Part shown: piece by piece, positions 7,469-53,589 of the stretch | Layout of the letters: each line of letters opens with the position of its first letter | Numbering within the stretch: the stretch's first letter is position 1 | Origin: an uncultured Gammaproteobacteria bacterium | Lineage (GTDB): Bacteria > Patescibacteriota > Patescibacteriia > Veblenbacterales > UBA10138 | DNA: 64,000 nt | Direction of reading: 5' to 3' | Assembly (NCBI GenBank): GCA_964348825.1 | Contig: CAYGDX010000001.1 | Span: 367,463 to 431,462 of the forward strand | Made by a program: the position numbers and the translations under genes | The notes under the pieces: generated by a model | Told to the model about the DNA's origin: nothing | The model's database searches: none | The model's input: only the letters and a program-made list of their open reading frames with translations

Positions 7469-7640
7469 ACAATTTTGAAAATCCGAAATCAGAATTGTCT
7501 AATTACTAATCTCTAAAATCTAATTTCTAAAAATGACAAATGTCTAATAACTAAATTTAGAGATTGGGAATTAGATATTTTTAGATATTAGAAATTAGTC
7601 ATTAGTGATTTTTTGTTTTTGGATTCCCGCCTCCGCGGGA
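7469..7640. repeat. Intergenic palindromic AAATCC / tandem 'aatc/ctaa' repeat (copy 3) inside the suf operon
   Basis: ctaatttctaaaaat...atttttagatattagaaattag inverted arrangement of about 170 nt between sufC and sufB. Confidence 0.55.
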
Positions 7641-7649
7641 ATGACAATT
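7621..7649. repeat. Conserved 29-nt GC hairpin motif GGATTCCCGCCTCCGCGGGAATGACAATT (copy 1)
   Basis: TCCCGC/GCGGGA stem just 3' of the sufC stop. A second copy with compensatory stem changes lies at 22385-22413. Confidence 0.6.
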
Positions 7650-7659
7650 GCTAATACTC

Positions 7660-8418
7660 TTACTCTAAGCTCTTACTCTTACTAAAATACTTATATCCAA
7701 ACTGATCAATTTTCTTCACCAACTCCTTTCCCCCACTCGCTACAATTTGTCCGTCAAGCATAATATGAATAAAATCAGGTTTTAGGTAATCCAAAAGTCG
7801 CTGGTAATGTGTGATTACCAAAAATCCCCTTGTTTTGTGTCGTAGTTCGCTAATACCATTCGCCACTGATTTTAAGGCGTCTAAATCAAGGCCAGAATCA
7901 GTTTCATCTAGTACTGCAAGCCGTGGTTTAAATAATAATAGTTGGAGTACTTCTAATTTTTTTTTCTCACCACCGGAAAAATTGTCGTTAATTGAGCGTT
8001 CTAAAAATTCAGGATTTAAATTTAATTGATTCAAAATTGGTTTTAATTTTTTTTGTAGTTCGGCTGGATTTATTTTTATAGAATGTAAATTATTGTAAGC
8101 CAAATGCAAAAAATTAAATATCGGCACACCGCTCAAGCTTTGTGGATTTTGAAAGGCTAAAAAAATTCCGGCTCGGGCTCTTATTTCTGGCGACATGGCG
8201 TTAATTTTTTTATCATTAAATTTTATATCACCGCGAGTTATTTTATAAGCTGGATGCCCAGCTATAGTTAAAGCTAGAGTAGATTTACCCGAGCCATTGG
8301 GCCCCATTATTACATGAGTTTCATTGGCTTTAACTTTGAGTGATAATCCATTGATAATTTTTTTATTTTCCGCCGCGACTGATAAATTATTTATAGATAG
8401 TAACATTTTAAATAACAT
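7660..8418 (-). CDS. sufC: Fe-S cluster assembly ATPase SufC
   Basis: Walker A GPNGSGKST, ABC signature LSGGEKK and Walker B VLDETDSGLD. It is the first gene of the suf operon. Confidence 0.9.
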   Translation of the reverse strand: MLFKMLLSINNLSVAAENKKIINGLSLKVKANETHVIMGPNGSGKSTLALTIAGHPAYKITRGDIKFNDKKINAMSPEIRARAGIFLAFQNPQSLSGVPIFNFLHLAYNNLHSIKINPAELQKKLKPILNQLNLNPEFLERSINDNFSGGEKKKLEVLQLLLFKPRLAVLDETDSGLDLDALKSVANGISELRHKTRGFLVITHYQRLLDYLKPDFIHIMLDGQIVASGGKELVKKIDQFGYKYFSKSKSLE

Positions 8419-9013
8419 TAAGACGATTTTCTACCTCAGTCCAATTTATTACTTGGAAGTATGCTTCAACATATTCTGGTCGACGATTTTGGTATTTCAA
8501 ATAGTAAGCGTGTTCCCACACATCAAGCCCTAAAATTGGAGTAAGTTTTTGACTAATTGGACAATCTTGGTTGGGAGTATTAACAATAGATAATTTTTTA
8601 GTTTGGTCAGCTGTAAGCCAAGTGAAGCCACTGCCAAATAGGGAAAGTGCCGATTTAGTAAAAGATTCTTTAAATTTTGCAAAGTCGCCAAAATCGCTAG
8701 TAATTTGTTCAGCTAATTTGCCTTGTGGCTCCTTAGCAACACCCGGTTTAATAATTTCCCAAAATAAACAGTGATTAAAATGCCCACCACCGTGATTGCG
8801 CACCGTAGTGCGAATACTTTCGGGTACAATATTTAAATTAGTTAGTAACCATTCGATTGATTTGTCAGCTAGTTCGGGGGCTTGGGTTAGCACTTCATTC
8901 AATTTGTTAACATAAGTTTGATGATGCTTACTATAGTGTATTTCCATTGTTTTAGCATCAAAATATGGCTCCAGCGCGTCGTAGGAGTAAGGCAATTTAG
9001 GTAATTCAAACAT
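8408..9013 (-). CDS. Fe/Mn-family superoxide dismutase
   Basis: LPKLPYSYDALEPYFDAKTMEIHYSKHHQTYV and DVWEHAYY metal-ligand motifs. Confidence 0.9.
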   Translation of the reverse strand: MFELPKLPYSYDALEPYFDAKTMEIHYSKHHQTYVNKLNEVLTQAPELADKSIEWLLTNLNIVPESIRTTVRNHGGGHFNHCLFWEIIKPGVAKEPQGKLAEQITSDFGDFAKFKESFTKSALSLFGSGFTWLTADQTKKLSIVNTPNQDCPISQKLTPILGLDVWEHAYYLKYQNRRPEYVEAYFQVINWTEVENRLNVI

Positions 9014-9116
9014 AGATAAAATATTAATAATTAAGTAAGATTAGTATAGCAAAAATTTCTAAAAATAGTTAATTTCATTTGTCAATCATGGTTTTTAATA
9101 CTATAATCAGCTTATT

Positions 9117-10523
9117 ATGAGTTTAGATTTATTCAACACCTTATCACGTCAAAAAGAAGAGTTTAAGCCCCTACAAGCTGGGCAGGTGGGCCTATATACT
9201 TGTGGGCCAACGGTTTATGCTGCGCCGCATTTGGGAAATTTGCGTACTTATATTTTTGAAGATATTTTAAAACGCACATTGCTAGCAAACGATTACAAAG
9301 TTAAGCATGTGATGAATATTACTGATGTCGGACATTTAGTAAGCGACGCGGATGAGGGTGAAGATAAAATGGAAAAAGGTTCGCGGGCGACAGGCAAAAC
9401 CGTGTGGGAGATAGCCACCGAATTCACGCAGGAATTTAAAAATAATTTAGTTGACCTTAATATTTTACCACCTGATATTTATTGCCCGGCGACTGATTAT
9501 ATTTCCGAGCAGATTGATTTAATAAAAAAGTTAGAGGCTAAGGGTTTTACTTATGTAATACCCGATGGTGTTTATTTTGATACTTCAAAATTATCTGATT
9601 ATGGCAAACTCGCGCGCCTTGATTTGGAAGGATTAAAAGCTGGCGCGCGAGTAGAAATTGCTAGTGGTAAAAAAAATATTACTGATTTTGCGCTTTGGAA
9701 ATTATCTTATTCTGGTGGAAGGTCTTTCGACCCAGCTCAAGACGACGCGAAGTCGCGTCGTCAAATGGAGTGGGATTCGCCTTGGGGTAAGGGTTTTCCA
9801 GGTTGGCATATTGAATGCAGTGCTATGAGTATGAAATACTTAGGCGAAATATTTGATATTCATTGTGGTGGCATTGACCATATTCCAGTGCATCATACTA
9901 ATGAAATCGCCCAAAGCGAAGCTGTAACTGGTAAAGTGCCAGCCAATTTTTGGATGCATGGCGAATTTATGGTGGTGGATGAAAAACGAATGGGAAAATC
10001 TGAAGGCAATGCTATGACTTTAGATTGGTTAAAAGAACAAAATATTTCACCACTTGAGTATCGTTATTTTTGTTTAGGTACTCATTATCGTAAACCACTT
10101 AGTTTTTCTTTGGAGGCGATTGTAAGCGCATCTAAAGCGCTTAAGAATATCCAAGCTAAAGTAGCTACTATGGTTGAAGTTCAAATCGGTTGCGCTGAAT
10201 TAGAGCAGAAATTTAAAGAAGCGATTAATGATGATTTAAATACACCGCAAGCGCTCGCCGTAGTGTGGGAAGTTTTAAAATCAAATTATCCAGATGGCGT
10301 TAAAAAAGCCTCATTACTTAAAATAGATGAAGTGTTGGGTTTGGGGTTAAAAGATATAAAATTAGTAGTTATACCACCAGCAGTTCAAACATTTGCAGAT
10401 GAACGTGAACAAGCGCGCCACGACAAAGATTTTACCAAGGCCGATGTAATTAGACAAAGTATAAAAGAATTGGGTTTTACAGTAGACGACACCGACTTTG
10501 GTCCAGTAATAAAAAAATTATAG
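9117..10523 (+). CDS. cysS: Cysteinyl-tRNA synthetase
   Basis: HLGN (HIGH-type) motif, KMGKS (KMSKS) motif and the Zn-binding Cys at CGPTVY. Confidence 0.9.
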
Positions 10524-10540
10524 CTATTACTTTGATTACT

Positions 10541-10633
10541 TCAACAACATACCAACATACTCCAGTTTGTTGGTATGTTGTTTTATTATCTAATTATGTC
10601 CGGCCGGACATAATTAGATAATAAAGTTTTTTT
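10541..10633 (+). terminator. Tandem intrinsic terminators downstream of cysS, including a perfect 42-bp palindrome
   Basis: Hairpin AACATAC...GTATGTTG followed by TTTT. Then TTATTATCTAATTATGTCCGG|CCGGACATAATTAGATAATAA at 10583-10624, followed by AGTTTTTTT. Confidence 0.65.
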
Positions 10634-10643
10634 AGGAAAATTT

Positions 10644-10716
10644 GGAAAATAAAAAAACGGTTCAGAATTTTTTGATTAGTGACTTATTGTCAAAAATCTC
10701 AATTCCGAACCGTTGT
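10644..10716 (-). terminator. Putative intrinsic terminator for the minus-strand secreted-protein gene
   Basis: Inverted repeat AACGGTTCAGAATT...AATTCCGAACCGTT, followed on the minus strand by a TTTTTTTATTTT run. The loop is large. Confidence 0.4.
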
Positions 10717-10764
10717 GTTCGTATGTTACGATTGGGTCAGCTAATCAATCGCAACGTACTTAAA

Positions 10765-13014
10765 TTATTTCTGCAGGATCATTCGCTCGTTTTGGACGAA
10801 TTCACCGGCTTGTAAACGATAGACATACACACCGCTTGGTAAATCAGAAGCGTTAAAGTCAACCGAACGCTCCCCCGCTTCCTGTTGAACCCCATTTAAC
10901 AATGTTGCCACTTCCTGCCCCAGCATATTGTACACCCTAAGTGTAACACTTGTTGCTATGGGTAAGCTGTAACGAATTGTTGTTGTAGGATTAAACGGAT
11001 TGGGGAAGTTTTGTTGGAGCGCAAACTGTTTGGGTGTTGAAGTTACATCATCACCCACGCCAGTTACTCCTGAAACTTCAACATTGATATTCTCAGTAGT
11101 AGTAAAATAACTACCCTTAAGATTCTCAAGAGAAAGTTGGAGGTTATCAACCGAACCTAGCATCACAATTTCCACTAAAGTTGCTTCATTTGCCATAATA
11201 CTGTCGTACCGAGCAAATGAAACCAAACCATCAGTAGTGTAATAATTTGCTAATTCTTCAATGATGCTACCAGGATAAGTTACGCTTTCCACTGTAAGTC
11301 GTGGGTTGAAGTGTAATTTTCCAGTGAATCGCTGTGCCGAACCGTAATTTCCGGTAAAACTAAACGATAACTTTGTTTTACCTTTCATAGTAATCGGAGT
11401 TATCAATACGGTTCCTTCAGCTGGATTGTTACTTTGAATTTGTTTCAATCCAGTTTTACCAAATCCGCTGATCGCGCCTTCGTAAATATTAGTAACATCA
11501 TCGCCATCGGTATCACCATCATAATCACCATCACCTAAATTTTTCACTGGTGGTGTACTGTCCGGCAAAATGTAAGCGTTGTTTAGTTTTACAGCATCGG
11601 CAATAGTATGATTATAATTCATATTCACATCAAGACGTGAATAGAAATATAGACGCGTTTTTGGCGTCCAAGCTGTAAAATCATCGTCGCCAGCAACATC
11701 AGCTAAAACTGCGTCGGTTAGATAGATGTCGGATGTACTGTTGTATGAGACGATTCCAATGGTCGCCAATTTGAAATCAGAGCTATTAAAGCCACTGGAA
11801 TTCATACCTCCAACACGAATGTTGTTGGTACAATAAAACCGATTAGTACCCTTACGCGCTGAAAAACCGTTATGACCTTCGATATCCATCATCCACTGTT
11901 GATCGTGATAAGTATTGTCAGACAAATCAACCTGATAGGCTGCTAAATTATACGGGTTACGGTAGATTGTTAGATTAGATTCAGTTGTATCACCATAAGT
12001 ACCAGCCGCGCCGTTTAAAACTAATATCGGTCTTTGTTGAGCGGCTTGAGCAAAGTAGGCAATTGTTGAGCTACTTAGTTGGTCATTTTCAGTGATGTTA
12101 AAAGACTCCCACGGCAAATTGCGAGCAGTAGCTTCAGCCGAATCAAGATTTACCCCATACTCTCGAAGTAACCATCTTGTTTCGTCCATCTCGTTGTTGT
12201 AGTTATTACACTGATCTTTTTTGAATAGACTAAGTAGAACATCGCGTAAGTACCAACCATACATATTATAGTTATATTGCTGTTCGTCTGACCACCATGA
12301 TATTCCACCAATAGCTTGTAGGTGACGGTAAGCAGGAGTAGTGAGAGTGTTTGGCACTTCATATTCGGGCAAGTTCATCTTATTGATACAAAACAGTGTA
12401 TCAATCATTTTGGCAAAATCGCCGTAGGTAACCGGATTAACTGCTGGAGGCAATATGATTGAAATATAATGATGGACCAACGGTAACCCATTTGCATTGT
12501 AACGAATCCCAGTAGTTAGATCGGTGACAATAATAGTTTGGGTTATTAAATTATAATGGCCAACTTTATAGGGTACGTCCGCTATAATTTGTAATTCAAC
12601 CGTTGTCCCTTTTGTGATGGAAAGATTAATTCCATCATCTAAGCTGTACCACATTACATTGTTAACACTATCGAGCATTCTTAAACCTAAGGATTCAGGA
12701 CCAGATGAATTAGTTGTCATAATAATTCTATCAATCCTAATGTCACTAGGAGATGTTGTTGGAACTGTAATCCTGAGTCTCGCATGGATTACATTATTTG
12801 TTCCAGCCAATACCTCTTGGATTGCTTCCCCTTCACCTATCTCGCATTTAATAGGTGGTGGTGTTGGTATTGGACAACCTGGGCATGGTGGTGGATTTCC
12901 ACCGTCGCCACCGCCATCTGGAGGTGGAACTTGTGCGAACGAATTTGTTGCGCTGAAAGTCAGGAATAAAACCCCGACAATAATTAATATTGTTAAAGAG
13001 AAAATAGATTTCAT
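10765..13014 (-). CDS. Large secreted protein with a type IX secretion system (Por) C-terminal sorting domain. It has an N-terminal signal peptide, a Pro/Gly-rich CxxC linker and a DGDYDGDTDGDD Ca-binding-like repeat
   Basis: The C-terminal roughly 80 aa (NFPNPFNPTTTIRYSLP...VTLRVYNMLGQEVATL...SGVYVYRLQAGEF) match the T9SS CTD consensus. The signal peptide is MKSIFSLTILIIVGVLFLTFSATNSFAQ. Local GC and codon usage look higher than in neighbouring genes. Confidence 0.7.
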   Translation of the reverse strand: MKSIFSLTILIIVGVLFLTFSATNSFAQVPPPDGGGDGGNPPPCPGCPIPTPPPIKCEIGEGEAIQEVLAGTNNVIHARLRITVPTTSPSDIRIDRIIMTTNSSGPESLGLRMLDSVNNVMWYSLDDGINLSITKGTTVELQIIADVPYKVGHYNLITQTIIVTDLTTGIRYNANGLPLVHHYISIILPPAVNPVTYGDFAKMIDTLFCINKMNLPEYEVPNTLTTPAYRHLQAIGGISWWSDEQQYNYNMYGWYLRDVLLSLFKKDQCNNYNNEMDETRWLLREYGVNLDSAEATARNLPWESFNITENDQLSSSTIAYFAQAAQQRPILVLNGAAGTYGDTTESNLTIYRNPYNLAAYQVDLSDNTYHDQQWMMDIEGHNGFSARKGTNRFYCTNNIRVGGMNSSGFNSSDFKLATIGIVSYNSTSDIYLTDAVLADVAGDDDFTAWTPKTRLYFYSRLDVNMNYNHTIADAVKLNNAYILPDSTPPVKNLGDGDYDGDTDGDDVTNIYEGAISGFGKTGLKQIQSNNPAEGTVLITPITMKGKTKLSFSFTGNYGSAQRFTGKLHFNPRLTVESVTYPGSIIEELANYYTTDGLVSFARYDSIMANEATLVEIVMLGSVDNLQLSLENLKGSYFTTTENINVEVSGVTGVGDDVTSTPKQFALQQNFPNPFNPTTTIRYSLPIATSVTLRVYNMLGQEVATLLNGVQQEAGERSVDFNASDLPSGVYVYRLQAGEFVQNERMILQK

Positions 13015-13214
13015 ACGAAATCCCTTTATATTGGTTTTGAATGTGCCACCTTGTCCCGCCTTGTGAGCATTAGGATTAAGTAGCTGTTATTTGTATTTTA
13101 ATTTTCGAACTAATTTACCATAGAATTATAAATCTGTCAAGCATATCCACCGATTAGGTGGAGACAAATTTTATTCTATGGCGCTATATTTAACGCTTTT
13201 ACCTATATTTACTT

Positions 13215-13253
13215 ACAAAAAAATACCTAGCCAAACATAAAAATTTGGCTAGG
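13215..13253 (-). terminator. Intrinsic terminator after the small minus-strand membrane ORFs
   Basis: 10-bp stem CCTAGCCAAA/TTTGGCTAGG with an 8-nt loop, followed on the minus strand by a T7 run. Confidence 0.6.
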
Positions 13254-13265
13254 ATTAGGGAAAAT

Positions 13266-13460
13266 TCAATTTAAATATATATCTGATAATAAATCACTTG
13301 GCGTGTTAAGGTACAGCTCCTTTTGGTAGTCATATTCACTCATTTGATTATTTAATAGCCATGATTTTTTAAAAGACACACCGAGTGTATTAAGTGCTAA
13401 CCCAATAGCAATCCATAAACTAATTGAACAAGTTAATATAACTTGAGCATCATTGATCAT
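13266..13460 (-). CDS. Small hydrophobic protein (64 aa), hypothetical
   Basis: Its ATG overlaps the TGA stop of an upstream 56-aa ORF (ATGA overlap). Confidence 0.35.
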   Translation of the reverse strand: MINDAQVILTCSISLWIAIGLALNTLGVSFKKSWLLNNQMSEYDYQKELYLNTPSDLLSDIYLN

Positions 13461-13627
13461 AGTTCCACTCCGTTTTTAACTACCACATCTTGGTCAGAAA
13501 GTTTTACGCGTAAAATATTCATAACCATTGGTGTTATACCAATAATGCCGTAAGCTAGTGTTAGCAATAAGCTAAATAATACACAAAGAACAAATATAGC
13601 ACCGTGAAATAATTTTTGAAAGATCAT
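13457..13627 (-). CDS. Small membrane protein (56 aa, MIFQKLFHGAIFVLCVLFSLLLTLAYGIIGITPMVMNILRVKLSDQDVVVKNGVEL), hypothetical
   Basis: Hand-translated ORF below the track's size cut-off. Its stop overlaps the start of the next small ORF. Confidence 0.3.
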   Translation of the reverse strand: MIFQKLFHGAIFVLCVLFSLLLTLAYGIIGITPMVMNILRVKLSDQDVVVKNGVEL

Positions 13628-13697
13628 TTTTACTCCTGATTATTTTTTTGATTTTGATTTAATATATTTGTTTTTAAATTACTCTTAATACTTAGGG

Positions 13698-13726
13698 TTG
13701 TCAAATCGAAAAAAATTAGTTATAAT
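13698..13726 (+). promoter_or_regulatory. Near-consensus sigma70-type promoter for the dus gene, with an almost leaderless start
   Basis: TTGTCA at 13698-13703, a 17-nt spacer, then TATAAT at 13721-13726. The ATG is at 13738 with no Shine-Dalgarno sequence. Confidence 0.5.
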
Positions 13727-13737
13727 ATCACGGCTTT

Positions 13738-14754
13738 ATGAATGATAATTTTTGGACAAAATTACCAAAACCAATTTTAGCTCTCGCCCCTATGGCGGGG
13801 GTAACAGATTTTGCTTTTCGGCAAATGTGTAAAAGTTATGGCGCTGATGTTATTTATACTGAATTTGCTTCGGCCAATGCTTTGGTGTATGAGAATGCTA
13901 AAACTAAAGATATGATTAAATTCTCCTCCACCGAACAACCAGTGGTTTGTCAGATTTTTGGTAATCAACCCGAAATGTTTTTTAAAGCCGCTAAAATTTT
14001 GGAAGAAATGGGTTTTGCAGGCGTAGATATAAATTTTGGCTGCCCGGCGTACAAAGTAGTAAAAACTGGTGGCGGAGTAAGCTTGATGCGTAATTTAAAT
14101 TTGTGTTATGAAATTGTACAAGCCACTTGTGAGGCAGTAAAAATTCCCGTATCTATAAAAATACGAGCTAGTATTAAGCATAACCAAAATACGAAGGATA
14201 AAATTGAAGGTGGCGCCAGTGATGATTGCCAAGATGTTTGTTCAACCGACACTGTAACCGCGGTTGATTTGGTTAATAGAATTGGGAAATTGCCAGTGGG
14301 TGCGATTATGATTCACGCTCGTTCATTTGAACAACCATTTGATGGCGAACCAAAATTAGAGATTATCAATGAAGTGAGGAAAGTGTGGTCAGGAATTTTA
14401 ATTGCCAATGGTGGTATTAGCACGCCTGAAAAAGCTAAAGAAATTTTAAATACCACTTTCGCCGATGGGGTTGGCTTAGCACGTGGGGCTTGGGGGCATC
14501 CGTGGCTATTTAAACAAACTAAAGATTACTTAAAAACTGGTGAGTATGAAATACCAGTTTGGGGAGAGATTAAGCGAGATATAATAAAACACGCACGCTT
14601 AGCTTTTGAAAATAGCGGCACACACGGTTTAATTGAACTACGCAAGCATTTGGGTTGGTATGTGAAAGGTTTTCCAAGTGCCTCTGAAATTCGAGCCAAA
14701 TTAATGACTTGTAGAAGTGTGGAAGAAATAGAAAATGTTTTGAATAATAATTAA
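13738..14754 (+). CDS. tRNA-dihydrouridine synthase (Dus family, FMN-dependent)
   Basis: LAPMAGVTDFAFRQMC...VDINFGCP...IANGGI conserved Dus motifs. Confidence 0.85.
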   Translation: MNDNFWTKLPKPILALAPMAGVTDFAFRQMCKSYGADVIYTEFASANALVYENAKTKDMIKFSSTEQPVVCQIFGNQPEMFFKAAKILEEMGFAGVDINFGCPAYKVVKTGGGVSLMRNLNLCYEIVQATCEAVKIPVSIKIRASIKHNQNTKDKIEGGASDDCQDVCSTDTVTAVDLVNRIGKLPVGAIMIHARSFEQPFDGEPKLEIINEVRKVWSGILIANGGISTPEKAKEILNTTFADGVGLARGAWGHPWLFKQTKDYLKTGEYEIPVWGEIKRDIIKHARLAFENSGTHGLIELRKHLGWYVKGFPSASEIRAKLMTCRSVEEIENVLNNN

Positions 14755-14770
14755 GCGTATAATTTTAAAT

Positions 14771-14810
14771 AAAAAAATAAGCCCACTCGAAGTAAGGTGG
14801 GCTTTGTAAT
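14771..14810. terminator. Bidirectional intrinsic terminator between convergent genes
   Basis: AAGCCCAC/GTGGGCTT stem flanked by an A-run on one side and a T-rich run on the other. Confidence 0.55.
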
Positions 14811-14826
14811 AATAAAAATATAATAT

Positions 14827-15225
14827 TTAGCTATTGAGTGGCAACTCAATAATATTATTTTGTAAATTTTGAAAATTAAAATTTTTCGCGCCCAAATGTG
14901 TAGCTAAACCACTATTTACAATTGTACTTTTAAAACCATTGTAACCGAGTTTTTCACAAATATTGTACAAGGTTTGTTGAGCGTCGGTAGGAGTTTTTTG
15001 AACAAGTTTTCCAATCTTAGTAAAATCTACATCTACAATATGCGAATCACAATTTTCCAAAAATTTTGTTAGGAAATTGTATTCGTCTTGTTTCAAGATA
15101 CGATTACCGTGTTCATTTAGCAACTTTAAAATCGCTGTAGAATGGTTGTTATCGTTTATTCTTATTGGATAAACTTTAAGGTGGTACAAAATGTGAAGCA
15201 GGGCTAACGAATTTGCTTTTAACAT
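14827..15225 (-). CDS. Hypothetical protein
   Basis: 132 aa ORF with no recognisable motif. Confidence 0.35.
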   Translation of the reverse strand: MLKANSLALLHILYHLKVYPIRINDNNHSTAILKLLNEHGNRILKQDEYNFLTKFLENCDSHIVDVDFTKIGKLVQKTPTDAQQTLYNICEKLGYNGFKSTIVNSGLATHLGAKNFNFQNLQNNIIELPLNS

Positions 15226-15313
15226 AGTTATCCTATTATTTTTGTTTGGTTTTTGATTTTGGTTGGTTATTTAGGTTTGTTTCAAACAATCTTACATTAA
15301 TATAAATTTTATG

Positions 15314-15967
15314 TCAATTTTTTTCAAGCCATTCTGGTAACCATTTATCTACTATCTTTAAAGCATCTTTTTCAGCTTGATCTAAAACTTCTTTGGGTGT
15401 TTTAAGGTGATCTTTACGCCAAGATGGGATAACTGAGTAAAGTATAGCCTGACGCATTAAAATCATTCGGTAATCTTTATCGCTACGAGCCAGTTCAGCT
15501 AGCGCATGATTAATTGACCAAAATAAGCTGCGATATTCTCCGCCCGATGTTTCCATTATGTGTTTAATATCAGCACTTAACCCCTTATTAATATCTGGTA
15601 GAAAAATACGATTTATTTCTGGTTGTTTAGAATTTTTAAAAAACTTTTCATCACTACTAGCTTCATTCAATATTTTTTCAATATCTTTTTTTCTTAATTC
15701 TAGTTTTTGTAATTCGATGGGTGTACAATCTCCCATTTTTCCAGTTAGCGCTTCTTTAATGTTTATTAATTCGCTACGGTAGCTATTTAAAATTTCCCAG
15801 TGGTCAGACGCCTTATCGTTATTTTCAAATTTTTTTACTTGTTCAGAATCAACGCGAACTTCACCGCTTGATTCATCAATTCGCTCTGCATTATTAAAAA
15901 ATTCTGTAAAACCCTCCTTCATATTACCTACTCTTAGAATTAACCCGCGAACCAAAGCGCACATCAA
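15314..15967 (-). CDS. Hypothetical protein
   Basis: 217 aa ORF, acidic and helical, with no recognisable motif. Confidence 0.35.
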   Translation of the reverse strand: MMCALVRGLILRVGNMKEGFTEFFNNAERIDESSGEVRVDSEQVKKFENNDKASDHWEILNSYRSELINIKEALTGKMGDCTPIELQKLELRKKDIEKILNEASSDEKFFKNSKQPEINRIFLPDINKGLSADIKHIMETSGGEYRSLFWSINHALAELARSDKDYRMILMRQAILYSVIPSWRKDHLKTPKEVLDQAEKDALKIVDKWLPEWLEKN

Positions 15968-16805
15968 TATACTCGGCTTTGCTTAGGAAGTCCTCACCTT
16001 TTTCAGCTATAAATTTAACTAAGGTTAGTAGTTGAGCATCAAGCGGACGACTAGTGGTAACTAAAATATAAAAACCATTCTCAGTTATTACTCGCCAAGT
16101 TGGTAGATCTTTGGGGTTATAATTAATTTTAGAGATTTTTATATTTGGTAGCCGAGGCGTCCAAGTAGCACTTAGTTCACCTAAAAATTCCGCTGATTTA
16201 TCGTCAAGTATACTGTCGCCTAAATTTAACTCTTTATCTGACACATCATTGATTAAAATATAAGGTGTAGTGTCGCCTGCGTTGTATTTCATTAATTTGC
16301 CATTTCTATCTAGTAAAAAAATTTCTTTGTCATTTTGCCACTTAGCTACTACTACATCTTGGGTTAAGGAAACCCTCAAAACATTTGGCCATTGCTTTTG
16401 AAATTCAGCACTATTGGCTGCAAAATTTTGGGTTAAATTTTCTTTGGCGCGGGCTTCATTAAAAAATAGTAAATTATTTTGTGGTATAACTAGCGCCCAA
16501 AAATTACGAGTGTAACCGCGTACTAATTCTGCAATTTCAGTTCTAGTAGTTGGTGTTTTTACACCGGTTACAATAATATTTCTAATTTGAAGGATTGGCG
16601 AATAAACTATTACTACCACTAATGCAAATAAACCAATCAAGGTGAGTCGAAAGGGCCAAGATTGTAACATACTGGTATGACCAGCCCCACGATAGGCCTG
16701 CGACAAATGCCGTACCGAGCTTGGAGTATGATTCACCCGCGGCGCAAAATCGCGCATCGTCACAAGTGTGCGACGTCGTTTTTTATATTTTATTCCTTGT
16801 ACCAT
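15924..16805 (-). CDS. ftsQ: Cell division protein FtsQ/DivIB-like
   Basis: Basic N-terminus, a single TM segment and a POTRA-like region. It lies immediately downstream of ddl, as in dcw clusters. Confidence 0.55.
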   Translation of the reverse strand: MVQGIKYKKRRRTLVTMRDFAPRVNHTPSSVRHLSQAYRGAGHTSMLQSWPFRLTLIGLFALVVVIVYSPILQIRNIIVTGVKTPTTRTEIAELVRGYTRNFWALVIPQNNLLFFNEARAKENLTQNFAANSAEFQKQWPNVLRVSLTQDVVVAKWQNDKEIFLLDRNGKLMKYNAGDTTPYILINDVSDKELNLGDSILDDKSAEFLGELSATWTPRLPNIKISKINYNPKDLPTWRVITENGFYILVTTSRPLDAQLLTLVKFIAEKGEDFLSKAEYIDVRFGSRVNSKSR

Positions 16806-17917
16806 GATTTTTTAGGCTTAAAACTAGTTTGTAATTTTATTTTAGCGGAAGCGCGCTCAATTGCCAAATTAATTAGCTTGTCTAGGAGTTTAATATAAGT
16901 AAGTCCTGAAGCTTCCCAGAGTTTTGGATACATACTAATACTAGTAAACCCGGGGATTGTATTGACTTCGTTTAAATAAATGCGATACGGATTAGCTTGC
17001 ACTAAAAAATCTACTCGGGCCATACCCGCAAGATCTAAAGCTTTAAAAGCCGCCGTGGCGTAATTTTGAATTTCCTTGGCTATTTTAGATGGCAAGGGTG
17101 CGGGAATAACTGCTTGCGATTTACCATCTACATATTTGGCATCGTAATCATAAAATTCATTAGAAGAAATGATTTGGCCAAGTACTGAAGCTTCCGGATT
17201 ATCATTTCCCAGCACCGCACACTCTATTTCTAAAGGATTTGCAACTGCTTGTTCTACAATAATACGGCGGTCATACTTGACGGCTAAATTAATAGCTTGA
17301 ATAAGTCCTTTTTCATTATGGGCCTTACTAATTCCGACCGACGATCCTAAATTTGCTGGTTTAACAAAGCAAGGCAACCCAATCTGTTTTAGAATGTCTT
17401 TAACAAGTAGGGGCTTATTTTTTTGCCAAGCTGAAGCGGTAAAATATGTGAATTTTGGTGTAGGAATGTTATTTGATTCAAAAATCATTTTTTGAGCAAT
17501 TTTATCCATTCCAACTGCAGAGCCAAGCACACCCGCACCCACATAGGGAATACCCGCCAACTCTAAAAGTCCTTGCACTGTACCATCTTCCCCAAATGTA
17601 CCATGGAGCACAGGGAAAATTACATCAAGTGGTGTCGCCGATGTTTTATTAATATTTAAACTGACTAGAGATTTAATAGTTGGGTCAGCTGGCACCATAC
17701 TCGCTAATTGTTTTGGTATTGCAGTTTGACTTTTTAGTATACTCAAAACCTTATCACCTGAAAGCCATTTACCTTCCTTACTAATACCAATCGGTACTAC
17801 TTCATACTTTTTTGGATCCAAGTTTTTTATAATTGAAGTGGCGGAAACCAAAGACACTTCATGCTCGGCCGACCGACCACCAAATAATACACCAACTTTT
17901 ATTCTTTTTGATTTCAT
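16790..17917 (-). CDS. ddl: D-alanine--D-alanine ligase
   Basis: ATP-grasp Ddl motifs: KVGVLFGGRSAEHEVSL...GEDG..QG..E...IPYVG and the C-terminal NEVNTIPGFT. Confidence 0.9.
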   Translation of the reverse strand: MKSKRIKVGVLFGGRSAEHEVSLVSATSIIKNLDPKKYEVVPIGISKEGKWLSGDKVLSILKSQTAIPKQLASMVPADPTIKSLVSLNINKTSATPLDVIFPVLHGTFGEDGTVQGLLELAGIPYVGAGVLGSAVGMDKIAQKMIFESNNIPTPKFTYFTASAWQKNKPLLVKDILKQIGLPCFVKPANLGSSVGISKAHNEKGLIQAINLAVKYDRRIIVEQAVANPLEIECAVLGNDNPEASVLGQIISSNEFYDYDAKYVDGKSQAVIPAPLPSKIAKEIQNYATAAFKALDLAGMARVDFLVQANPYRIYLNEVNTIPGFTSISMYPKLWEASGLTYIKLLDKLINLAIERASAKIKLQTSFKPKKSWYKE

Positions 17918-18558
17918 AGTTTAATTTCTCCATAAATAGCGAGCGGTGCGCCTGATTTCATCGCCCACAATTGATCACCATAATCAAAATGCCACCACTC
18001 TTCTGGGTATTGCATAAAACCAATAGCTAACATAGCTTCACGAAAAATTTTACGATTTTTACGAACCGTTTCGTTTATGGCGTTCTCTTCAAAATATAAA
18101 GGTGAGGCCTCGGGACCAAAATAATCAAAATCTGTACCCATATCTAATTCTTTGCCTACCTGATCAACTAAAGTTAAATCCACTGCCCCACCAGTAGCAT
18201 GAGGTGGAATCCGACCCGGCTCATGTGGTGGTGTTACAAAAGTCCCCACTTCTATCGCTAATTTATTTTCATCCCATTCAGGATGTTTAAGTTTAAACTC
18301 CTCCCAAGTACTTTTATAAAGTGTATTTTGCACTTCTCTGGGGCGAAACCCATCCCAAATTTTAAATTTATAAATTTTTAAATCTTTCTGAATTTCCTGT
18401 AATTTTTTCGCCACACCTACTCGTAAAAACATGCGCTGATTAGTAGTAAATCCTCGGTTAAAATATATTGGATCTAAAATAAAATCAAAACTACTTAAAT
18501 CAACCAGTGGTTCATTATTCTCTTGTATTGGAATTGTTTGATAACTGGCAATGGACAT
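17914..18558 (-). CDS. D-Ala-D-Ala dipeptidase, VanX/DdpX-like (M15D family)
   Basis: WDGFRPREVQ...PHATGGAVDLTL...WWHFDY Zn-ligand motifs. The track ORF runs to 18678, but the likely start is the ATG at 18556-18558, just after the alr stop. Confidence 0.7.
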   Translation of the reverse strand: MSIASYQTIPIQENNEPLVDLSSFDFILDPIYFNRGFTTNQRMFLRVGVAKKLQEIQKDLKIYKFKIWDGFRPREVQNTLYKSTWEEFKLKHPEWDENKLAIEVGTFVTPPHEPGRIPPHATGGAVDLTLVDQVGKELDMGTDFDYFGPEASPLYFEENAINETVRKNRKIFREAMLAIGFMQYPEEWWHFDYGDQLWAMKSGAPLAIYGEIKL

Positions 18559-18562
18559 AAAT

Positions 18563-19717
18563 TTACGACAACATTCTTGGCAATTGTGGATTAATTCGTG
18601 TGACCACTTCGTAATTAATCGTTTCAGTAAGTATAGCGATTTCATCAGCAGTAATTTCCTCTGCCTTTTGTTTGCCAATTAATACTACTTCATCCCCCAC
18701 CTTAACATTTGGAACTTCTGTTACATCTACCATTGTAATATTCATACAAATTTTACCAATAATTTTACACTTTGTCCCGTGAATGATTACTGATCCACGA
18801 TTGGAAAGCTTTCGATCATAGCCGTCGAAGTACCCAATCGGTAGTGTAGCCATCACCGTTGGGCGTTTAGTAATAAATGAGCAATCATAACCCACCGGTG
18901 TTTTAGCTGGCAGGTTTTGAATTTGAATTACTTGTGTTTTCCAAGTGAGCGCTGGTTTTAAATCAAAATTAGGATGATTTTTTTGTACCATTTGTTTGTT
19001 ATCGTCACTAGGCCACAAGCCATACAAACCAATACCAAGTCGCACTAAATTGTGTTGTGATTTAGGTGCGGTAGTAATAGCGGCCGTACAAGCCGTATGT
19101 TCATATAAATCTTTTGGTAGCAATTTTTTAACTTTATTTAAAAATTCGTTAAAATTATTTAGTTGCTCGTTTAAAAACCAATGATCTTGTGATTCAGCAG
19201 TGGCAAAATGCGTGGCAATACCTTCTAATTGTAAATAGGATGAATTTAAAATTCGCTTTAAAAAAATAGTAGCTTGTTCGGCATTTAATCCTAATCGCGC
19301 CATGCCAGTTTCAAGTTTTAAATGTACTCGAGCAACTTTACCGCATTTTTTAGCTGCTTGCTCTAAAGCTTTTAATTGTTCTTCTTCGTACACAGCAAAA
19401 GAAATTTTTTGCGATAAGGCGGTAATTAAATCATGACTAATAAAAGGGCGGAAATAACTTAATACTAAAATTGGTAAATTAATTCCGCTTTGTCTTAAAG
19501 CTAGTGCTTCATTTAAACCCGCTACGCCCAGCATATCTACTTGATGCGACCTTTCACAAACTCGCGCTGCGAGCTCTAAACCGTGACCGTAAGCATTTGA
19601 TTTTACCACGGCTAAAAGTTTTACGCCGCGACCCAATAAACGACGATGGGCACGAATGTTTGAAATAAGTGCCCGCTGTGAAATTTCTAGCCAAGAATAG
19701 TGGGGAGATTTTGTCAT
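18563..19717 (-). CDS. alr: Alanine racemase
   Basis: PLP-lysine motif AVVKSNAYGHG and a C-terminal beta-domain. Confidence 0.85.
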   Translation of the reverse strand: MTKSPHYSWLEISQRALISNIRAHRRLLGRGVKLLAVVKSNAYGHGLELAARVCERSHQVDMLGVAGLNEALALRQSGINLPILVLSYFRPFISHDLITALSQKISFAVYEEEQLKALEQAAKKCGKVARVHLKLETGMARLGLNAEQATIFLKRILNSSYLQLEGIATHFATAESQDHWFLNEQLNNFNEFLNKVKKLLPKDLYEHTACTAAITTAPKSQHNLVRLGIGLYGLWPSDDNKQMVQKNHPNFDLKPALTWKTQVIQIQNLPAKTPVGYDCSFITKRPTVMATLPIGYFDGYDRKLSNRGSVIIHGTKCKIIGKICMNITMVDVTEVPNVKVGDEVVLIGKQKAEEITADEIAILTETINYEVVTRINPQLPRMLS

Positions 19718-19733
19718 GATTTATCATTTAAAT

Positions 19734-20186
19734 TTATGAATATTTTTTATTATTAAAATATTCTTTCCAACTACGTATATAGATTATATTGATAATAATG
19801 CTACTCCAAAAAAACAACATACCAAGAGGGATTAACATAATATAATATAATGATACATATGATATACTACTACTGAAAGGCAATCCAAAAAAACTTATGG
19901 TATCTAAAAATAATGACACCCCACCTTCTGTAGGTATAAAAATACTTGATAATATGACAATACAAACTAGTATTAATAAATTTAATCCTAATTTTCTACC
20001 CTTTAATAATAAAATACTGGAAATTGTAATACCAATGGAATTTATTAAATAGTAAAGAAAATAAAAAAATATCGCAGACCGTGAACCATCACTGAATATA
20101 TTATAAAATGACACACTTAAAATAATTCCAATTACCCCGCCTAATAACAATAAATACGATATTATTTTGAACTTACGTGGTAGCAT
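19734..20186 (-). CDS. Hypothetical integral membrane protein
   Basis: Highly hydrophobic. The track ORF runs to 20258, but the likely start is the ATG at 20184-20186 (MLPRKFKI), which avoids overlap with serS. Confidence 0.4.
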   Translation of the reverse strand: MLPRKFKIISYLLLLGGVIGIILSVSFYNIFSDGSRSAIFFYFLYYLINSIGITISSILLLKGRKLGLNLLILVCIVILSSIFIPTEGGVSLFLDTISFFGLPFSSSISYVSLYYIMLIPLGMLFFWSSIIINIIYIRSWKEYFNNKKYS

Positions 20187-20190
20187 ATAA

Positions 20191-21477
20191 TTAACTCTTA
20201 ATAATTGTTTTATTGGGCATGTACGACTGGAGCACTTCTGGAATTTTAATTGAGCCATCTGCTTGCTGATAATTTTCTATAATCGCAATAATAGTTCGGC
20301 CAATGGCAAATACCGTGGCATCTACCATATGTACGAATTCTGCTTTGTTGCCCAGCTTAACTTTTGTTCCCAAACGACGGGCTTGATAATCAGTGTTTAA
20401 ATCAGAGGTGGTAGTTTCACGATAAGTGCCTTGCCCCGGCATCCAAGAGTTAATATCAATTTGTCGAGCATCTGGCCCGCCCATATCACCCGTACAAATA
20501 CTAATCACCTGATACGGAATGCCAAGTTGTTGTAATAAATATTCTTGAATCGCTACGGTAAAATCTTGCTCGGCGCGTGAATTTTCCGGCAAGCAAAATA
20601 TTTCCATTTCTAATTTATCAAATTGATGAACGCGTAAAATACCTTTTGTATCTTTACCATAAGTGCCTGATTCGCGGCGAAAAGCACTAGAAAAACCAGC
20701 ATAGCGAATTGGTAAATCTTTGGCCTCAAAAGTGTGATCCATATGCATAGGCCCTAAAGTATGCTCAGCTGAGCCAACCAACCACAAATCGTCCGATGGT
20801 ATATGATAGCGATCATCGCTTGGATCAAGTCGTGCCATTTTACGATACACTTCTTCGCGTAACATAACAGGTGGCACTACCGGCATAAATGGTTTAGTGC
20901 TTATGGCTGTTAAATTATTTGCTTCAGCAATTTTAGCTAATACATTGGAATCTGTTAAAACAGAATATCCAAATTGAATAAGCGCAAATTCAAGTAGCGC
21001 CGCATCGCCTTTTAAATAACCAAAACGACTGCCGGAAACTTCCGCCGCAGTTTTAACATCAATAATATCTAACTCTTCGGCGATGGTTAAATAATCTTTA
21101 GGCGTGAAATCAAATTTTCGTTTCTCCCCTACTTCACGAGCTACTACATTATCAGCTTCAGATTTACCAATCGGCACATCATCAAATGGGATATTCGGCA
21201 CCTTGTACATCAACTCTTGAAGATTTGCGGATAATTCATTATATGTTTTTTCCAAACTCTGTATGGCGGTTTTTAAAGTTTTAAGCTCGGCTGATTCACC
21301 ACGCGCTTCTTTGCTTTTAATTTTTTGCTCCGCGCGCTTTTGCTCCAGTTCCACTTGCACCACCCGCGCTTCGGCATCTATTTTTAAAAGCTCATCAATG
21401 TCAACTTTGCCGTTCTTATTTAGAACGGCTTTTTTTACTATTTTTGGATTTTCACGAATGAATTTAATGTCTAACAT
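20191..21477 (-). CDS. serS: Seryl-tRNA synthetase
   Basis: N-terminal coiled coil plus class II motifs (FRRE...GILRVHQF, GRTIIAIIENYQ). Confidence 0.9.
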   Translation of the reverse strand: MLDIKFIRENPKIVKKAVLNKNGKVDIDELLKIDAEARVVQVELEQKRAEQKIKSKEARGESAELKTLKTAIQSLEKTYNELSANLQELMYKVPNIPFDDVPIGKSEADNVVAREVGEKRKFDFTPKDYLTIAEELDIIDVKTAAEVSGSRFGYLKGDAALLEFALIQFGYSVLTDSNVLAKIAEANNLTAISTKPFMPVVPPVMLREEVYRKMARLDPSDDRYHIPSDDLWLVGSAEHTLGPMHMDHTFEAKDLPIRYAGFSSAFRRESGTYGKDTKGILRVHQFDKLEMEIFCLPENSRAEQDFTVAIQEYLLQQLGIPYQVISICTGDMGGPDARQIDINSWMPGQGTYRETTTSDLNTDYQARRLGTKVKLGNKAEFVHMVDATVFAIGRTIIAIIENYQQADGSIKIPEVLQSYMPNKTIIKS

Positions 21478-43257: not shown

Positions 43258-44013
43258 TTAGTGTGTCTCTTCCGCTTCTTTTCTTGTGTTAGAGTACGCG
43301 CACCAATCACAATGCTCTCCAGATTCTGGTGTCACATTACTTTCCAAACATTTCTTAATTTCAAACAAAGTTTTTTCTACCCACGAATCATCACCTTTAT
43401 GTTCAATCAAATTAACATCAAAATCAATTCGCTTATCAAAAGCTTGCCTATCCATTTTCCCAGTGCAATATACGAAATAACCAACATCAGATACTTTGAG
43501 CCCATTCTGTCGCAAAAGCCACTGGTATACCTCCATTTGGCGCTTGTAGCCATTCTGCCACTCTTTATCTAGTGCTTTGACTGCTTCATCTTTGGCGGTT
43601 GCCTTATAATCCACGACAATATATTCGCTCTTCCCGTTGATCCACAAATCATCAATCGCACCAGTTACTAAAAGTTCTGTTGGTTCGTGCAGGAATCTCA
43701 CACCACCAAAATTTCTTCGCCATTCATCAAGCTCCTCGTGAGACATTGGTCGCGCATCAATTCCATATTCTTTTTGTAATGGATGCTGTTCATTCTTCAC
43801 CCGATACGAGTCAAATTCTTGTTTCAAAAGAAAATCCACAGCACTGTTGATGGAAAAAGGAAATCCCGGTACCCGTTTTACACCAAGCTTGTTATCTATA
43901 TAAAAACATCGCGGACATTCCTTAAACAAATCAATTTTGGAACGAGAAAGTTTCCAATTCTTGCCTCCATAATTCCACGATTCCATTCGGTTTGGGTTGT
44001 AGTATTCAGACAT
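43258..44013 (-). CDS. Cas4-like PD-(D/E)XK nuclease with an Fe-S Cys cluster (DUF83 / PDDEXK_1-like)
   Basis: N-terminal LSRSKIDLFKECPRCFYI (a Cas4/AddB-type motif), a D...VVDYK catalytic core, and C-terminal Cys residues (KKC...HCDWC). It sits 5 nt downstream of hsdR. Confidence 0.6.
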   Translation of the reverse strand: MSEYYNPNRMESWNYGGKNWKLSRSKIDLFKECPRCFYIDNKLGVKRVPGFPFSINSAVDFLLKQEFDSYRVKNEQHPLQKEYGIDARPMSHEELDEWRRNFGGVRFLHEPTELLVTGAIDDLWINGKSEYIVVDYKATAKDEAVKALDKEWQNGYKRQMEVYQWLLRQNGLKVSDVGYFVYCTGKMDRQAFDKRIDFDVNLIEHKGDDSWVEKTLFEIKKCLESNVTPESGEHCDWCAYSNTRKEAEETH

Positions 44014-44017
44014 AAAA

Positions 44018-47047: not shown

Positions 47048-47051
47048 AATA

Positions 47052-47909: not shown

Positions 47910-47913
47910 AAAT

Positions 47914-49005: not shown

Positions 49006-49011
49006 ATATAA

Positions 49012-49776: not shown

Positions 49777-49781
49777 ATAAT

Positions 49782-51569: not shown

Positions 51570-51577
51570 ACCAAGTA

Positions 51578-51623
51578 AGTGTAGCAAAACACTAATAGGT
51601 TGTCAAGTGACAACCTATTAGTG
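51578..51623 (-). promoter_or_regulatory. Promoter of the hsdM operon, embedded in a perfect 16-2-16 palindrome (candidate autoregulatory operator)
   Basis: On the minus strand, TTGACA (51601-51606), a 17-nt spacer, then TACACT (51578-51583), with the ATG 8 nt downstream. The palindrome CACTAATAGGTTGTCA-AG-TGACAACCTATTAGTG spans 51590-51623. Confidence 0.5.
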
Positions 51624-53491: not shown

Positions 53492-53500
53492 TCTATATAA

Positions 53501-53571
53501 CTGGGGGACATGGATTCGAACCATGATAAACAGATCCAGAATCTGTTGTCCTACCATTAGACGATCCCCCA
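53501..53571 (-). tRNA. tRNA-Gln (anticodon CUG)
   Basis: Hand-folded cloverleaf. Acceptor stem UGGGGGA/UCCCCCA with U1:A72 and discriminator G73, both Gln identity elements. D-arm GUCU/GGAC. Anticodon arm ACAGA-UUCUGGA-UCUGU. A 4-nt variable loop. T-arm CAUGG-UUCGAAU-CCAUG. No CCA is encoded. Confidence 0.85.
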
Positions 53572-53589
53572 ACGTATTTAAATTCTAAA

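Follow-up and report, generated by a model that had tools for sequence, protein, structure and literature searches.

A putative surface scaffold of Patescibacteria that ends in a conserved T9SS-type C-terminal domain

The gene and the architecture of its product

The subject of this study is a gene for a modular protein of 749 aa, P0001, which carries a predicted signal peptide and ends in a C-terminal domain (CTD) of type IX secretion systems (T9SS). The gene is located in a stretch of 64,000 nucleotides (nt), in the following the window, which comprises positions 367,463 to 431,462 of contig CAYGDX010000001.1 (assembly GCA_964348825.1). A first-pass annotation, prepared from the letters of the window, had noted an open reading frame (ORF) of this length with a T9SS CTD in surroundings which otherwise do not resemble the Fibrobacteres-Chlorobi-Bacteroidetes (FCB) group. 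It considered either a horizontally acquired gene, the CTD of which is used by a different export route, or a chimeric assembly. The features of the locus are compiled in Table 1.

The ATG start codon is preceded by a ribosome-binding site (RBS), AAGGGA, 8-13 nt 5' of it. The exact protein sequence of P0001 is present in four independent contigs. A full-length AlphaFold2 (AF2) model built on the family alignment has a mean predicted local distance difference test score (pLDDT) of 78 and a predicted template modeling score (pTM) of 0.63. The model and the alignments divide the chain into a signal peptide, a disordered stalk, an Ig-like domain, a helical domain, two β-sandwiches which flank a dockerin-like segment, a flexible linker, and the CTD.

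By eye, the N-terminus presents an n-region of MK, a hydrophobic core of 18 residues, and small residues at -3 and -1. Cleavage is predicted at residues 27/28 (window 12931-12936). All family members possess an equivalent N-terminal segment which is followed by Gln. The stalk is rich in Pro and Gly and includes the CPGCPIP linker pointed out earlier. Its CPGCP motif (CxxC, residues 43-47, window 12874-12888) is kept in the two closest orthologues only. The Ig-like domain is restricted to the long family members and is missing in those of 570-600 aa. In the helical domain D291 is invariant, S292 and E294 are nearly so throughout the family alignment; the domain has no match in Pfam or in the Protein Data Bank (PDB). 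In the linker P661 and L666 are invariant across the family.

A Gln immediately after the predicted signal peptidase site is observed in every family member and also in a protein with BNR repeats and a CTD which is encoded on a related contig (L009, 14139-15731). The sites include SFA↓Q, AMA↓Q, AFA↓Q, and ADA↓Q. This agrees with the 'Q-rule' of Bacteroidetes; outside of this phylum the top value, 77%, is that of Ignavibacterium album (PMC5837995). A SpaA_2-like protein, the lone clear secreted neighbor that has no CTD, reads VLA↓A without a Gln at +1; this sample is too small for statistics.

The two β-sandwiches which enclose the dockerin-like segment are predicted to be cohesin-like. In a Foldseek search the type II cohesin dyad of ScaA (3l8q) was matched with E = 3e-10, and the match spans the two sandwiches. 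Further cohesin matches are 2xdh from Archaeoglobus fulgidus (TM-score on the target, TMt, 0.73), 6kge_A (TMt 0.68), and 4dh2_A (TMt 0.59); for type I cohesins TMt amounts to 0.6-0.7. According to the model, P0001 thus possesses the cohesin jelly-roll fold. One relative, P0162, has a weak match to Pfam Cohesin with 20 bits against a cut-off of 24.1 (E = 8e-4). The Asp-rich segment DVNMNYNHTIADAV...LGDGDYDGDTDGDDV, initially described as Ca-binding-like repeats, is indeed present and probably constitutes a divergent dockerin. Solved dockerins are retrieved by a sub-profile of this segment from the family with E-values between 5e-6 and 1e-3; Pfam Dockerin_1 (PF00404) is matched by 8 of 15 family members (best 1.8e-5). 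In the AF2 model the two helices of this segment are located at 471-482 and 504-515, and the CTD sandwich at 677-747.

Table 1. Features of the locus, with window coordinates
Feature	Coordinates	Strand	Basis
Gene for the modular protein P0001, predicted to be secreted, 749 aa	10765..13014	minus	ORF, ATG start
Predicted Sec/signal peptidase I signal peptide, residues 1-27, cleavage SFA↓Q	12934..13014	minus	sequence inspection
Disordered Pro/Gly-rich stalk with CPGCP motif, residues 28-55	12850..12933	minus	pLDDT <50
N-terminal Ig-like β-sandwich, residues 56-187	12454..12849	minus	AF2 strands
Helical domain, residues 197-325, conserved N(L/I)DS.EA.ARG motif	12040..12426	minus	AF2 helices, pLDDT 74-93
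Cohesin-fold β-sandwich 1, residues 330-458	11641..12027	minus	AF2 pLDDT ~90 and Foldseek
Probable divergent dockerin, two EF-hand-like Ca loops and helices, residues 459-517	11464..11640	minus	profile and AF2
Cohesin-fold β-sandwich 2, residues 533-647	11074..11418	minus	AF2 and Foldseek
Flexible pre-CTD linker GVTGVGDD..TPKQFAL, residues 650-669 (AF2 segment 650-673)	11008..11067	minus	pLDDT 35-48
T9SS type-A CTD, residues 670-749	10768..11007	minus	HMMs, fold, conservation
Promoter TTGACA, 17 nt, TG-n-TAAATT	13112..13140	minus	10/12 score and TG extension
5' leader with conserved GAAAATTAAAATACAAATAACA block and RBS	13015..13111	minus	alignment with L005
Terminator hairpin of the P0001 gene	10651..10719	minus	stem AACGGTTC(G/A)GAA, 31-nt loop, T-run
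Intrinsic terminator of the upstream small-ORF unit	13226..13253	minus	11-bp stem, then TATTTTTTTG
Two small single-transmembrane ORFs, 56 and 64 aa, upstream of the P0001 gene	13266..13627	minus	called as genes in L001 and L002
cysS, convergent neighbor, syntenic anchor	9117..10523	plus	TIGR00435, 415 bits
First hairpin after cysS, 19-bp stem	10543..10582	plus	
cysS terminator, 44-nt perfect palindrome and T-run	10582..10625	plus	
dusB, syntenic anchor on the other side	13738..14754	plus	

The C-terminal domain

The assignment of the C-terminus to the T9SS sorting domains in the first-pass annotation is confirmed by two curated hidden Markov models (HMMs). Residues 670-748 score 43 bits with TIGR04183 (cut-off 23) and 38.7 bits with PF18962, Por_Secre_tail (cut-off 27). 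The domain reaches the last residue of the protein and contains the motifs PNPF(N/S), LG, SG.Y.Y, and a basic/hydrophobic tail. All 17 family members have these motifs without variation, and the CTDs of the FCB group share them. When modeled alone by AF2 the CTD attains a pLDDT of 88. In the PDB it is closest to 8glk_D, the CTD of the substrate NucA in complex with the T9SS of Flavobacterium johnsoniae, followed by the CTD of mirolase (8qb1) and by FlgD Ig domains. The E-values of these fold matches are only ~2e-3, in keeping with a small and generic fold. A custom CTD profile run against six frames of the 64 kb detected no second CTD in the window.

The CTDs from members of the candidate phyla radiation (CPR), i.e., Patescibacteria, have no motifs of their own. 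The pairwise values are 0.52 for CPR-CPR, 0.45 for CPR-other, and 0.43 for other-other combinations. The information content per column of CPR CTDs correlates with that of other CTDs at r = 0.83, the latter having been picked for their similarity to the query sequence. When the CPR CTDs are used as a profile, the best matches are CTDs from Ignavibacteria, Ignavibacteriales, Chlorobiota, and Bacteroidota. The matches are mostly short fragments, and all named ones are from Ignavibacteria, Chlorobiota, or Bacteroidota; this search informs on the subtype of the CTD, not on its spread in CPR.

A protein from Ignavibacteria (L006), matched to residues 577-749, was considered as a donor of a cohesin and CTD combination and was rejected: this Zn-metalloprotease carries a CTD but is otherwise unrelated. 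The body of P0001 has no kin in the FCB group; therefore the CTD is the sole link of the family to these bacteria. It looks as if the CTD, perhaps together with the Gln at +1 of the signal peptide, is alone derived from the FCB group or Ignavibacteria, and as if this derivation is old.

The family and the selection on its CTD

The body of P0001 (residues 1-665) was used as a query in an exhaustive HMMER search of 1.84 billion representative proteins. It has 16 relatives only, 15 of them below 1e-10, with identities of 26-35% and the core of the similarity at residues 190-665. A CTD (Por_Secre_tail) is present at the end of all ten body relatives tested. In P0168 the Por_Secre_tail score is just under the Pfam cut-off, and FlgD_ig scores higher. 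All named body relatives are Patescibacteria; the full-length relatives, which are from metagenome-assembled genomes, are labeled 'Patescibacteria group bacterium'. Among the 15 non-redundant family members six are confirmed as CPR, either by name or by cysS synteny, and two more reside on compact contigs with genes for ribosomal proteins, aminoacyl-tRNA synthetases, ComEC, and VirD4-like proteins. Scans of contig collections from genomes and metagenomes with a two-member alignment brought up almost nothing new.

An alignment of 17 sequences has a mean column identity of 33%. Of 33 invariant positions 20 are located inside residues 661-732. Averaged over pairs, column identity reaches 0.51 in the CTD, against 0.39 for the dockerin segment and 0.24-0.29 for the rest. 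No other region of the family is as conserved as the CTD, which is about twofold above the other β-sandwich domains.

When the window gene is compared with an orthologue of 63-67% identity, the proportions of nonsynonymous (pN) and synonymous differences (pS) are 0.18 and 0.53 in the CTD; in the body pN is 0.215 and pS is saturated. For the CTD omega is ~0.2, also between paralogues. The genome H52-bin160_1 (GCA_038061115.1) codes for a pair of paralogues, P0002 and P0160, which share 35% identity in the body and 83% in the last 95 residues, the latter with a pN of 0.11 and a pS of 0.46. A recent gene conversion as the cause of this likeness is ruled out by the pS of 0.46; the two values indicate long-term purifying selection.

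P0160 (865 aa) adjoins cysS on contig L014 (JBBTZY010000007.1). By its body, however, P0002 and not P0160 is the orthologue of the window gene. Nonetheless the spacer downstream of P0160 matches that of the window. The arrangement is consistent with the loss of a tandem paralogue or with a recombination in the CTD-coding region in the lineage of the window.

The CTD is also attached to a different body. On contig L009 the BNR-repeat protein with a CTD is encoded two genes away from the family member P0158. Its CTD is closest to that of P0158, with 69% identity and the same tail, TEARKMLLAR. In this contig the slot between cysS and dusB is enlarged (11427-20348). It contains TPM-domain, LemA, and GH130 genes, the gene for the 530-aa BNR/PSII_BNR protein with the T9SS CTD, a gene for a 706-aa SpaA_2-repeat protein, and then that for P0158. 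The slot looks like an island of surface proteins.

Locus, synteny, and host lineage

The P0001 gene is surrounded by housekeeping genes, in the order sufS, sufD, sufB, sufC, sodA, cysS, the P0001 gene, dusB, ftsQ-like, ddl, vanX-like, alr. Farther away the window contains genes for SerRS, LysRS/AsnRS-type enzymes, PBP2, mreBC, dnaX, a MacAB-type exporter, a type I restriction-modification (R-M) system, and a VirD4-like ATPase. Among the best 120 relatives of CysS all those with a name are Patescibacterial (Candidatus Veblenbacteria 69%, Kerfeldbacteria 62%, Parcubacteria, and others). The earlier impression of a non-FCB context thus agrees with CysS and with the relatives of P0001, which are Patescibacterial. 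Judged by these relatives the host is one of the ultra-small Patescibacteria (CPR), with Veblenbacteria and Kerfeldbacteria as its kin.

The alr, vanX-like, ddl, and ftsQ-like genes form a compact cell-wall cluster. Within it the ORF of the vanX-like D-Ala-D-Ala dipeptidase, which has a TTG start, overlaps the alr ORF by ~116 nt (window 17914-19717, minus strand); the vanX-like gene probably starts farther downstream than listed.

Logan/ENA contigs from other assemblies contain the locus with 100% identity. L001 corresponds to window 10596-18793, i.e., from the P0001 gene to alr, and L007 to 7620-10611, i.e., from sufC to cysS. Three single contigs from three samples (L009, L010, and L011), in which CysS is 67-71% identical, have the order sufB-sufC-sodA-Rrf2-x-cysS (plus), CTD gene (minus), two small ORFs (minus), dusB (plus). 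Contig L014 from H52-bin160_1 contains the junction of CTD gene, terminator, palindrome, and cysS on one contig. From this synteny and the L014 junction it follows that the gene occupied this site already in the ancestor of the clade. The comparisons show that the gene is native and vertically inherited, and that body and CTD have remained together down to 26% identity. The chimeric assembly which the first-pass annotation had suspected is refuted by the identical independent contigs and by the synteny in at least four other Patescibacterial assemblies.

The two small ORFs upstream of the P0001 gene were considered as conserved partners. A pair of ORFs of 47-60 aa exists at the equivalent position in L009, L010, and L011 with no recognizable sequence likeness. 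The position is kept, the sequence is not, and the candidates were dropped.

Promoter, leader, and terminators

The promoter element TTGACA-17-TAAATT that had been reported upstream of the gene was found again, extended by a TG. As a class, promoter-like matches are not above expectation in this DNA (17 found against 13.2 +/- 3.6 in shuffled sequences). In the orthologous locus L005 (JBBTZY010000095.1, also H52-bin160_1), the -35 element, the spacer, and the leader block are nearly identical despite saturated synonymous sites. The promoter is supported because it is conserved, not because it matches a consensus. A nested hairpin said to surround the promoter did not hold up: the 9-nt arms are at chance length for this region and the left arm is absent from L005.

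Terminators on both sides of the gene had been correctly recognized. In comparison with H52-bin160_1 the stems of the gene's own terminator are kept and the loop varies. The terminator behind cysS is a perfect palindrome with a T-run as noted earlier; its size is 44 nt and not 42. The palindrome is identical in H52-bin160_1 (L014 ~2770-2815), where CysS is 88% identical and coding synonymous sites differ by ~50%. The Logan contigs L001 and L007 both stop within it. The palindrome is a selected element and at the same time an assembly breaker. The 19-bp hairpin ahead of it has a compensatory change from C-G to T-A at 10545/10580 relative to H52-bin160_1, which supports a real stem. Over the first 157 nt the spacer from cysS to the CTD gene has ~5 differences against H52-bin160_1. 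With a conserved promoter of the sigma-70 type and conserved terminators at both ends, the gene is, as read from the DNA, a transcription unit of its own.

Composition

A GC content and codon choice richer than those of the neighbors, with CCC, CTG, and GGC as examples, had been put forward as signs of foreign origin. Upon calculation this difference disappears. The GC content of the gene is 0.401 against 0.364 +/- 0.043 for 59 other ORFs (z 0.86), GC3 is 0.332 (z 1.09, rank 10 of 60), and GC1 has a z of 0.03. The three codons are not enriched, with CCC at 0.12 against 0.12 in the other genes, CTG at 0.06 against 0.04, and GGC at 0.17 against 0.22. In codon-usage distance the gene ranks 5th of 37, behind four long genes, i.e., those for type I R-M subunits, for a flotillin-like SPFH protein, and for the VirD4-like ATPase. 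An amino acid content of the secreted type accounts for the slight excess in GC, with more Pro, Gly, Thr, Asn, and Asp, and less Lys and Glu.

The type I R-M cluster (window 43258-51587) consists of genes for a PD-(D/E)XK nuclease, hsdR, a pair of unknown ORFs, hsdS, and hsdM. The GC content of the window is lowest here (0.29-0.34 at ~47-50 kb), and in codon deviance hsdM ranks 1st and hsdR 3rd of 37. This cluster looks more like acquired DNA than the P0001 gene. Nearby, at 53500-53700, a tRNA-Gln(CTG) has two short AT-rich tandem repeats directly behind it (53601-53644 and 53647-53700), possibly an integration site. The strongest local skew of the window (25780-27501, minus strand; AT skew -0.28, GC 0.43) belongs to the flotillin-like SPFH protein, which has a long coiled coil of Ala, Glu, and Lys. 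The skew is caused by amino acid composition; foreign DNA at 26-27 kb was considered and ruled out in view of this ordinary flotillin-like coiled-coil protein.

T9SS machinery and envelope

In total ~150 kb were sampled for secretion machinery, of which ~130 kb are from confirmed CPR contigs. No T9SS or outer-membrane family was detected among the scanned ORFs of the window (~40 of 60; all of at least 200 aa with the exception of one ABC-ATPase-sized ORF). Similarly, the called genes of the related contigs L009, L010, L011, and L013 contain no T9SS core component (SprA/Sov, PorV, PorU, GldK/L/M/N) and no outer-membrane family. The search for core genes which the first-pass annotation had suggested thus is negative for the ~150 kb of the window and related contigs. 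For the very small genomes of CPR bacteria, a machinery of >15 genes would be large.

The T9SS is essentially limited to Bacteroidetes and some relatives in the FCB group (PMC5837995). Patescibacteria are treated as lacking an outer membrane, and the type IV secretion system (T4SS) of most of them is considered as monoderm-type, according to one account (PMC12102498). An 868-aa TrwB/VirD4-like coupling ATPase encoded in the window (56591-59197, minus strand) fits the monoderm-type T4SS as described there. A full-text literature search found no discussion of CPR/Patescibacteria or monoderm bacteria together with T9SS or its CTD. Public databases already carry the label 'T9SS type A sorting domain-containing protein [Patescibacteria group bacterium]'.

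Discussion

So far the T9SS CTD has been known only as the signal by which proteins of FCB bacteria cross the outer membrane and attach to it. In the present case the strongest conservation within a protein family of Patescibacteria, which are regarded as single-membraned, falls on a canonical CTD. Since Patescibacteria are held to be without an outer membrane, and since the T9SS is nearly confined to the FCB group, a canonical function of the CTD appears unlikely. We consider it probable, with some reserve, that P0001 is a native, Sec-exported surface scaffold of CPR bacteria in which the T9SS-type CTD is under selection for a non-canonical role in recognition or anchoring. The protein would be exported via Sec, cleaved at SFA↓Q, and displayed or released outside of the single membrane. 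Going by their fold and by the family, the cohesin-like and dockerin-like modules probably mediate Ca-dependent self-assembly or the binding of partners, as in a surface scaffold or adhesin. The CTD is a canonical sorting domain of the Ignavibacteria type, probably acquired in ancient times and since then subject to strong purifying selection. On its flexible linker it is more likely a recognition or anchoring module of an already exported protein than a signal for translocation across an outer membrane by a T9SS of the cell itself. Its partner might be a surface component of the CPR cell or T9SS components exposed on a diderm FCB host. The previous idea of an acquired gene with a CTD that serves another route survives in this part: a non-canonical use of the CTD is an interesting possibility. 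A recently acquired foreign gene it is not, given the ordinary composition and the CPR-specific family.

Several points weigh against this proposal. The signal peptide was called by visual inspection only. P0001 itself has no match to Pfam Cohesin (PF00963), i.e., the cohesin modules are below the Pfam threshold, and the dockerin copy of the window on its own gives no Pfam match either. The negative result on machinery covers the 64 kb of the window, from a contig that is at least 469 kb long, plus ~85 kb from related contigs. The analysis did not bring up a partner, a processing enzyme, or a site of CTD cleavage, and the taxonomy is confirmed for 6 of 15 non-redundant family members. The conservation of the CTD could be largely structural and concern the core of the fold, which weakens the argument for recognition. 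Further, T9SS motifs that are so well kept are what one expects when a real T9SS-type receptor is present.

The structural objection can be extended to the view that the CTD is a relic: it would stem from an ancestor gene derived from the FCB group and be kept as a stable Ig-like end domain without specific recognition. In fact the fold is a generic Ig-like sandwich, and the better score of the distant P0168 as FlgD_ig than as Por_Secre_tail suggests drift in some lineages. Nevertheless, a relic fits poorly because the CTD is the best-conserved part of the protein, exceeding the other β-sandwiches by the factor given above, and because, within the same genomes, unrelated bodies carry it as well, as in the BNR protein of L009. 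Further, the loop and terminal motifs are retained (QNYPNPFNP, KKMxLxK), and the low omega applies even to paralogues. We consider this explanation unlikely.

A different proposal takes the CTD as a tag directed to a host. It would mimic the cargo signal of a diderm FCB host, e.g., from Ignavibacteria, and a surface-exposed attachment complex of the PorV/PorU type of this host would capture or covalently anchor the protein and so tether the epibiont. CPR bacteria are widely held to be obligate epibionts, again according to PMC12102498. The CTD has remained canonical and Ignavibacteria-like across a long CPR divergence, and it sits at the distal end of a modular adhesin or scaffold on a flexible linker. 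Structural constraint alone may account for this conservation, however, and we regard a host-directed tag as distinctly unlikely.

Alternatively P0001 might be canonical cargo, i.e., this Patescibacterial lineage would, contrary to expectation, possess its own T9SS together with an outer-membrane-like layer, and the CTD would work as in the FCB group. In motifs and in the pattern of constraint the CTDs are indistinguishable from those of FCB bacteria. There are several CTD proteins per genome (P0002 and P0160 in H52-bin160_1, P0158 and the BNR protein in L009), the CTDs are most alike within a genome, as co-evolution with one machinery predicts, and all CTD proteins have signal peptides with Gln at +1 as in Bacteroidota and Ignavibacterium. 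Against this stand the size of CPR genomes in relation to such a machinery, the negative result among the scanned ORFs of the window and the called genes of the related contigs, the lack of a CPR-T9SS link in the literature searched, and the view of Patescibacteria as cells without an outer membrane and with a monoderm-type T4SS (PMC12102498), in line with the VirD4-like gene of the window. Taken together, canonical secretion appears very unlikely.

Finally, a chimeric or mis-binned contig or a recent acquisition from the FCB group is hardly conceivable: short-read contigs do break at 10596-10611 with no independent contig spanning this point, which is due to the behavior of de Bruijn assemblies at the 44-nt perfect palindrome, and the orthologue P0002 is on a 2.65-kb contig with weak binning, yet the junction from cysS through palindrome and terminator to the CTD gene exists on the single L014 contig, cysS lies next to the CTD gene in L009, L010, and L011, composition and codon usage are ordinary, and the body has no FCB relative.

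If the Patescibacteria concerned were to have a system of their own, some CPR bacteria would possess an unsuspected T9SS-like receptor or envelope. If the CTD is repurposed, as we favor, it has acquired a second life as a module for recognition or anchoring, possibly aimed at a host. With a host-directed tag, a secretion signal would be reused as a handle for adhesion between species. The first two outcomes both bear on how CPR epibionts attach to cells and on what it is that a CTD recognizes.

Comparison with known systems

The type-A cargo proteins of the T9SS in Bacteroidota and Ignavibacteriota, for instance those with the NucA CTD (8glk) and the mirolase CTD (8qb1), resemble P0001 in the C-terminal β-sandwich of 80 residues with its canonical motifs, in the Sec signal peptide with Gln at +1, and in the flexible linker ahead of the CTD. 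In T9SS cargo and in the CPR proteins alike, a genome codes for several proteins with similar CTDs. In contrast to this cargo, P0001 is encoded in Patescibacteria, from which neither an outer membrane nor a T9SS is known, and its passenger domains have no homologue in the FCB group.

Non-cellulosomal proteins with cohesins and dockerins (2xdh; 3l8q) share with P0001 the cohesin-fold sandwiches, which in P0001 are combined with a probable two-loop dockerin in one chain, and a setting without glycoside hydrolases. They differ insofar as the cohesins of P0001 are recognizable by fold alone, with no Pfam match above cut-off, and its probable dockerin is divergent. Further, P0001 has an additional helical domain, an Ig-like domain, and the T9SS CTD.

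The sorting tags of monoderm bacteria and archaea, LPXTG with sortase, PGF-CTERM with archaeosortase, and others of this kind, are short tripartite signals with a transmembrane helix and a known cognate transpeptidase. The CTD of CPR bacteria differs from them as a folded domain of 80 aa without a transmembrane segment. Like the LPXTG or PGF-CTERM tags it is attached to the C-termini of several Sec-exported surface proteins of one genome. By analogy, such a tag on several surface proteins of one genome suggests a common partner by which they may be recognized.

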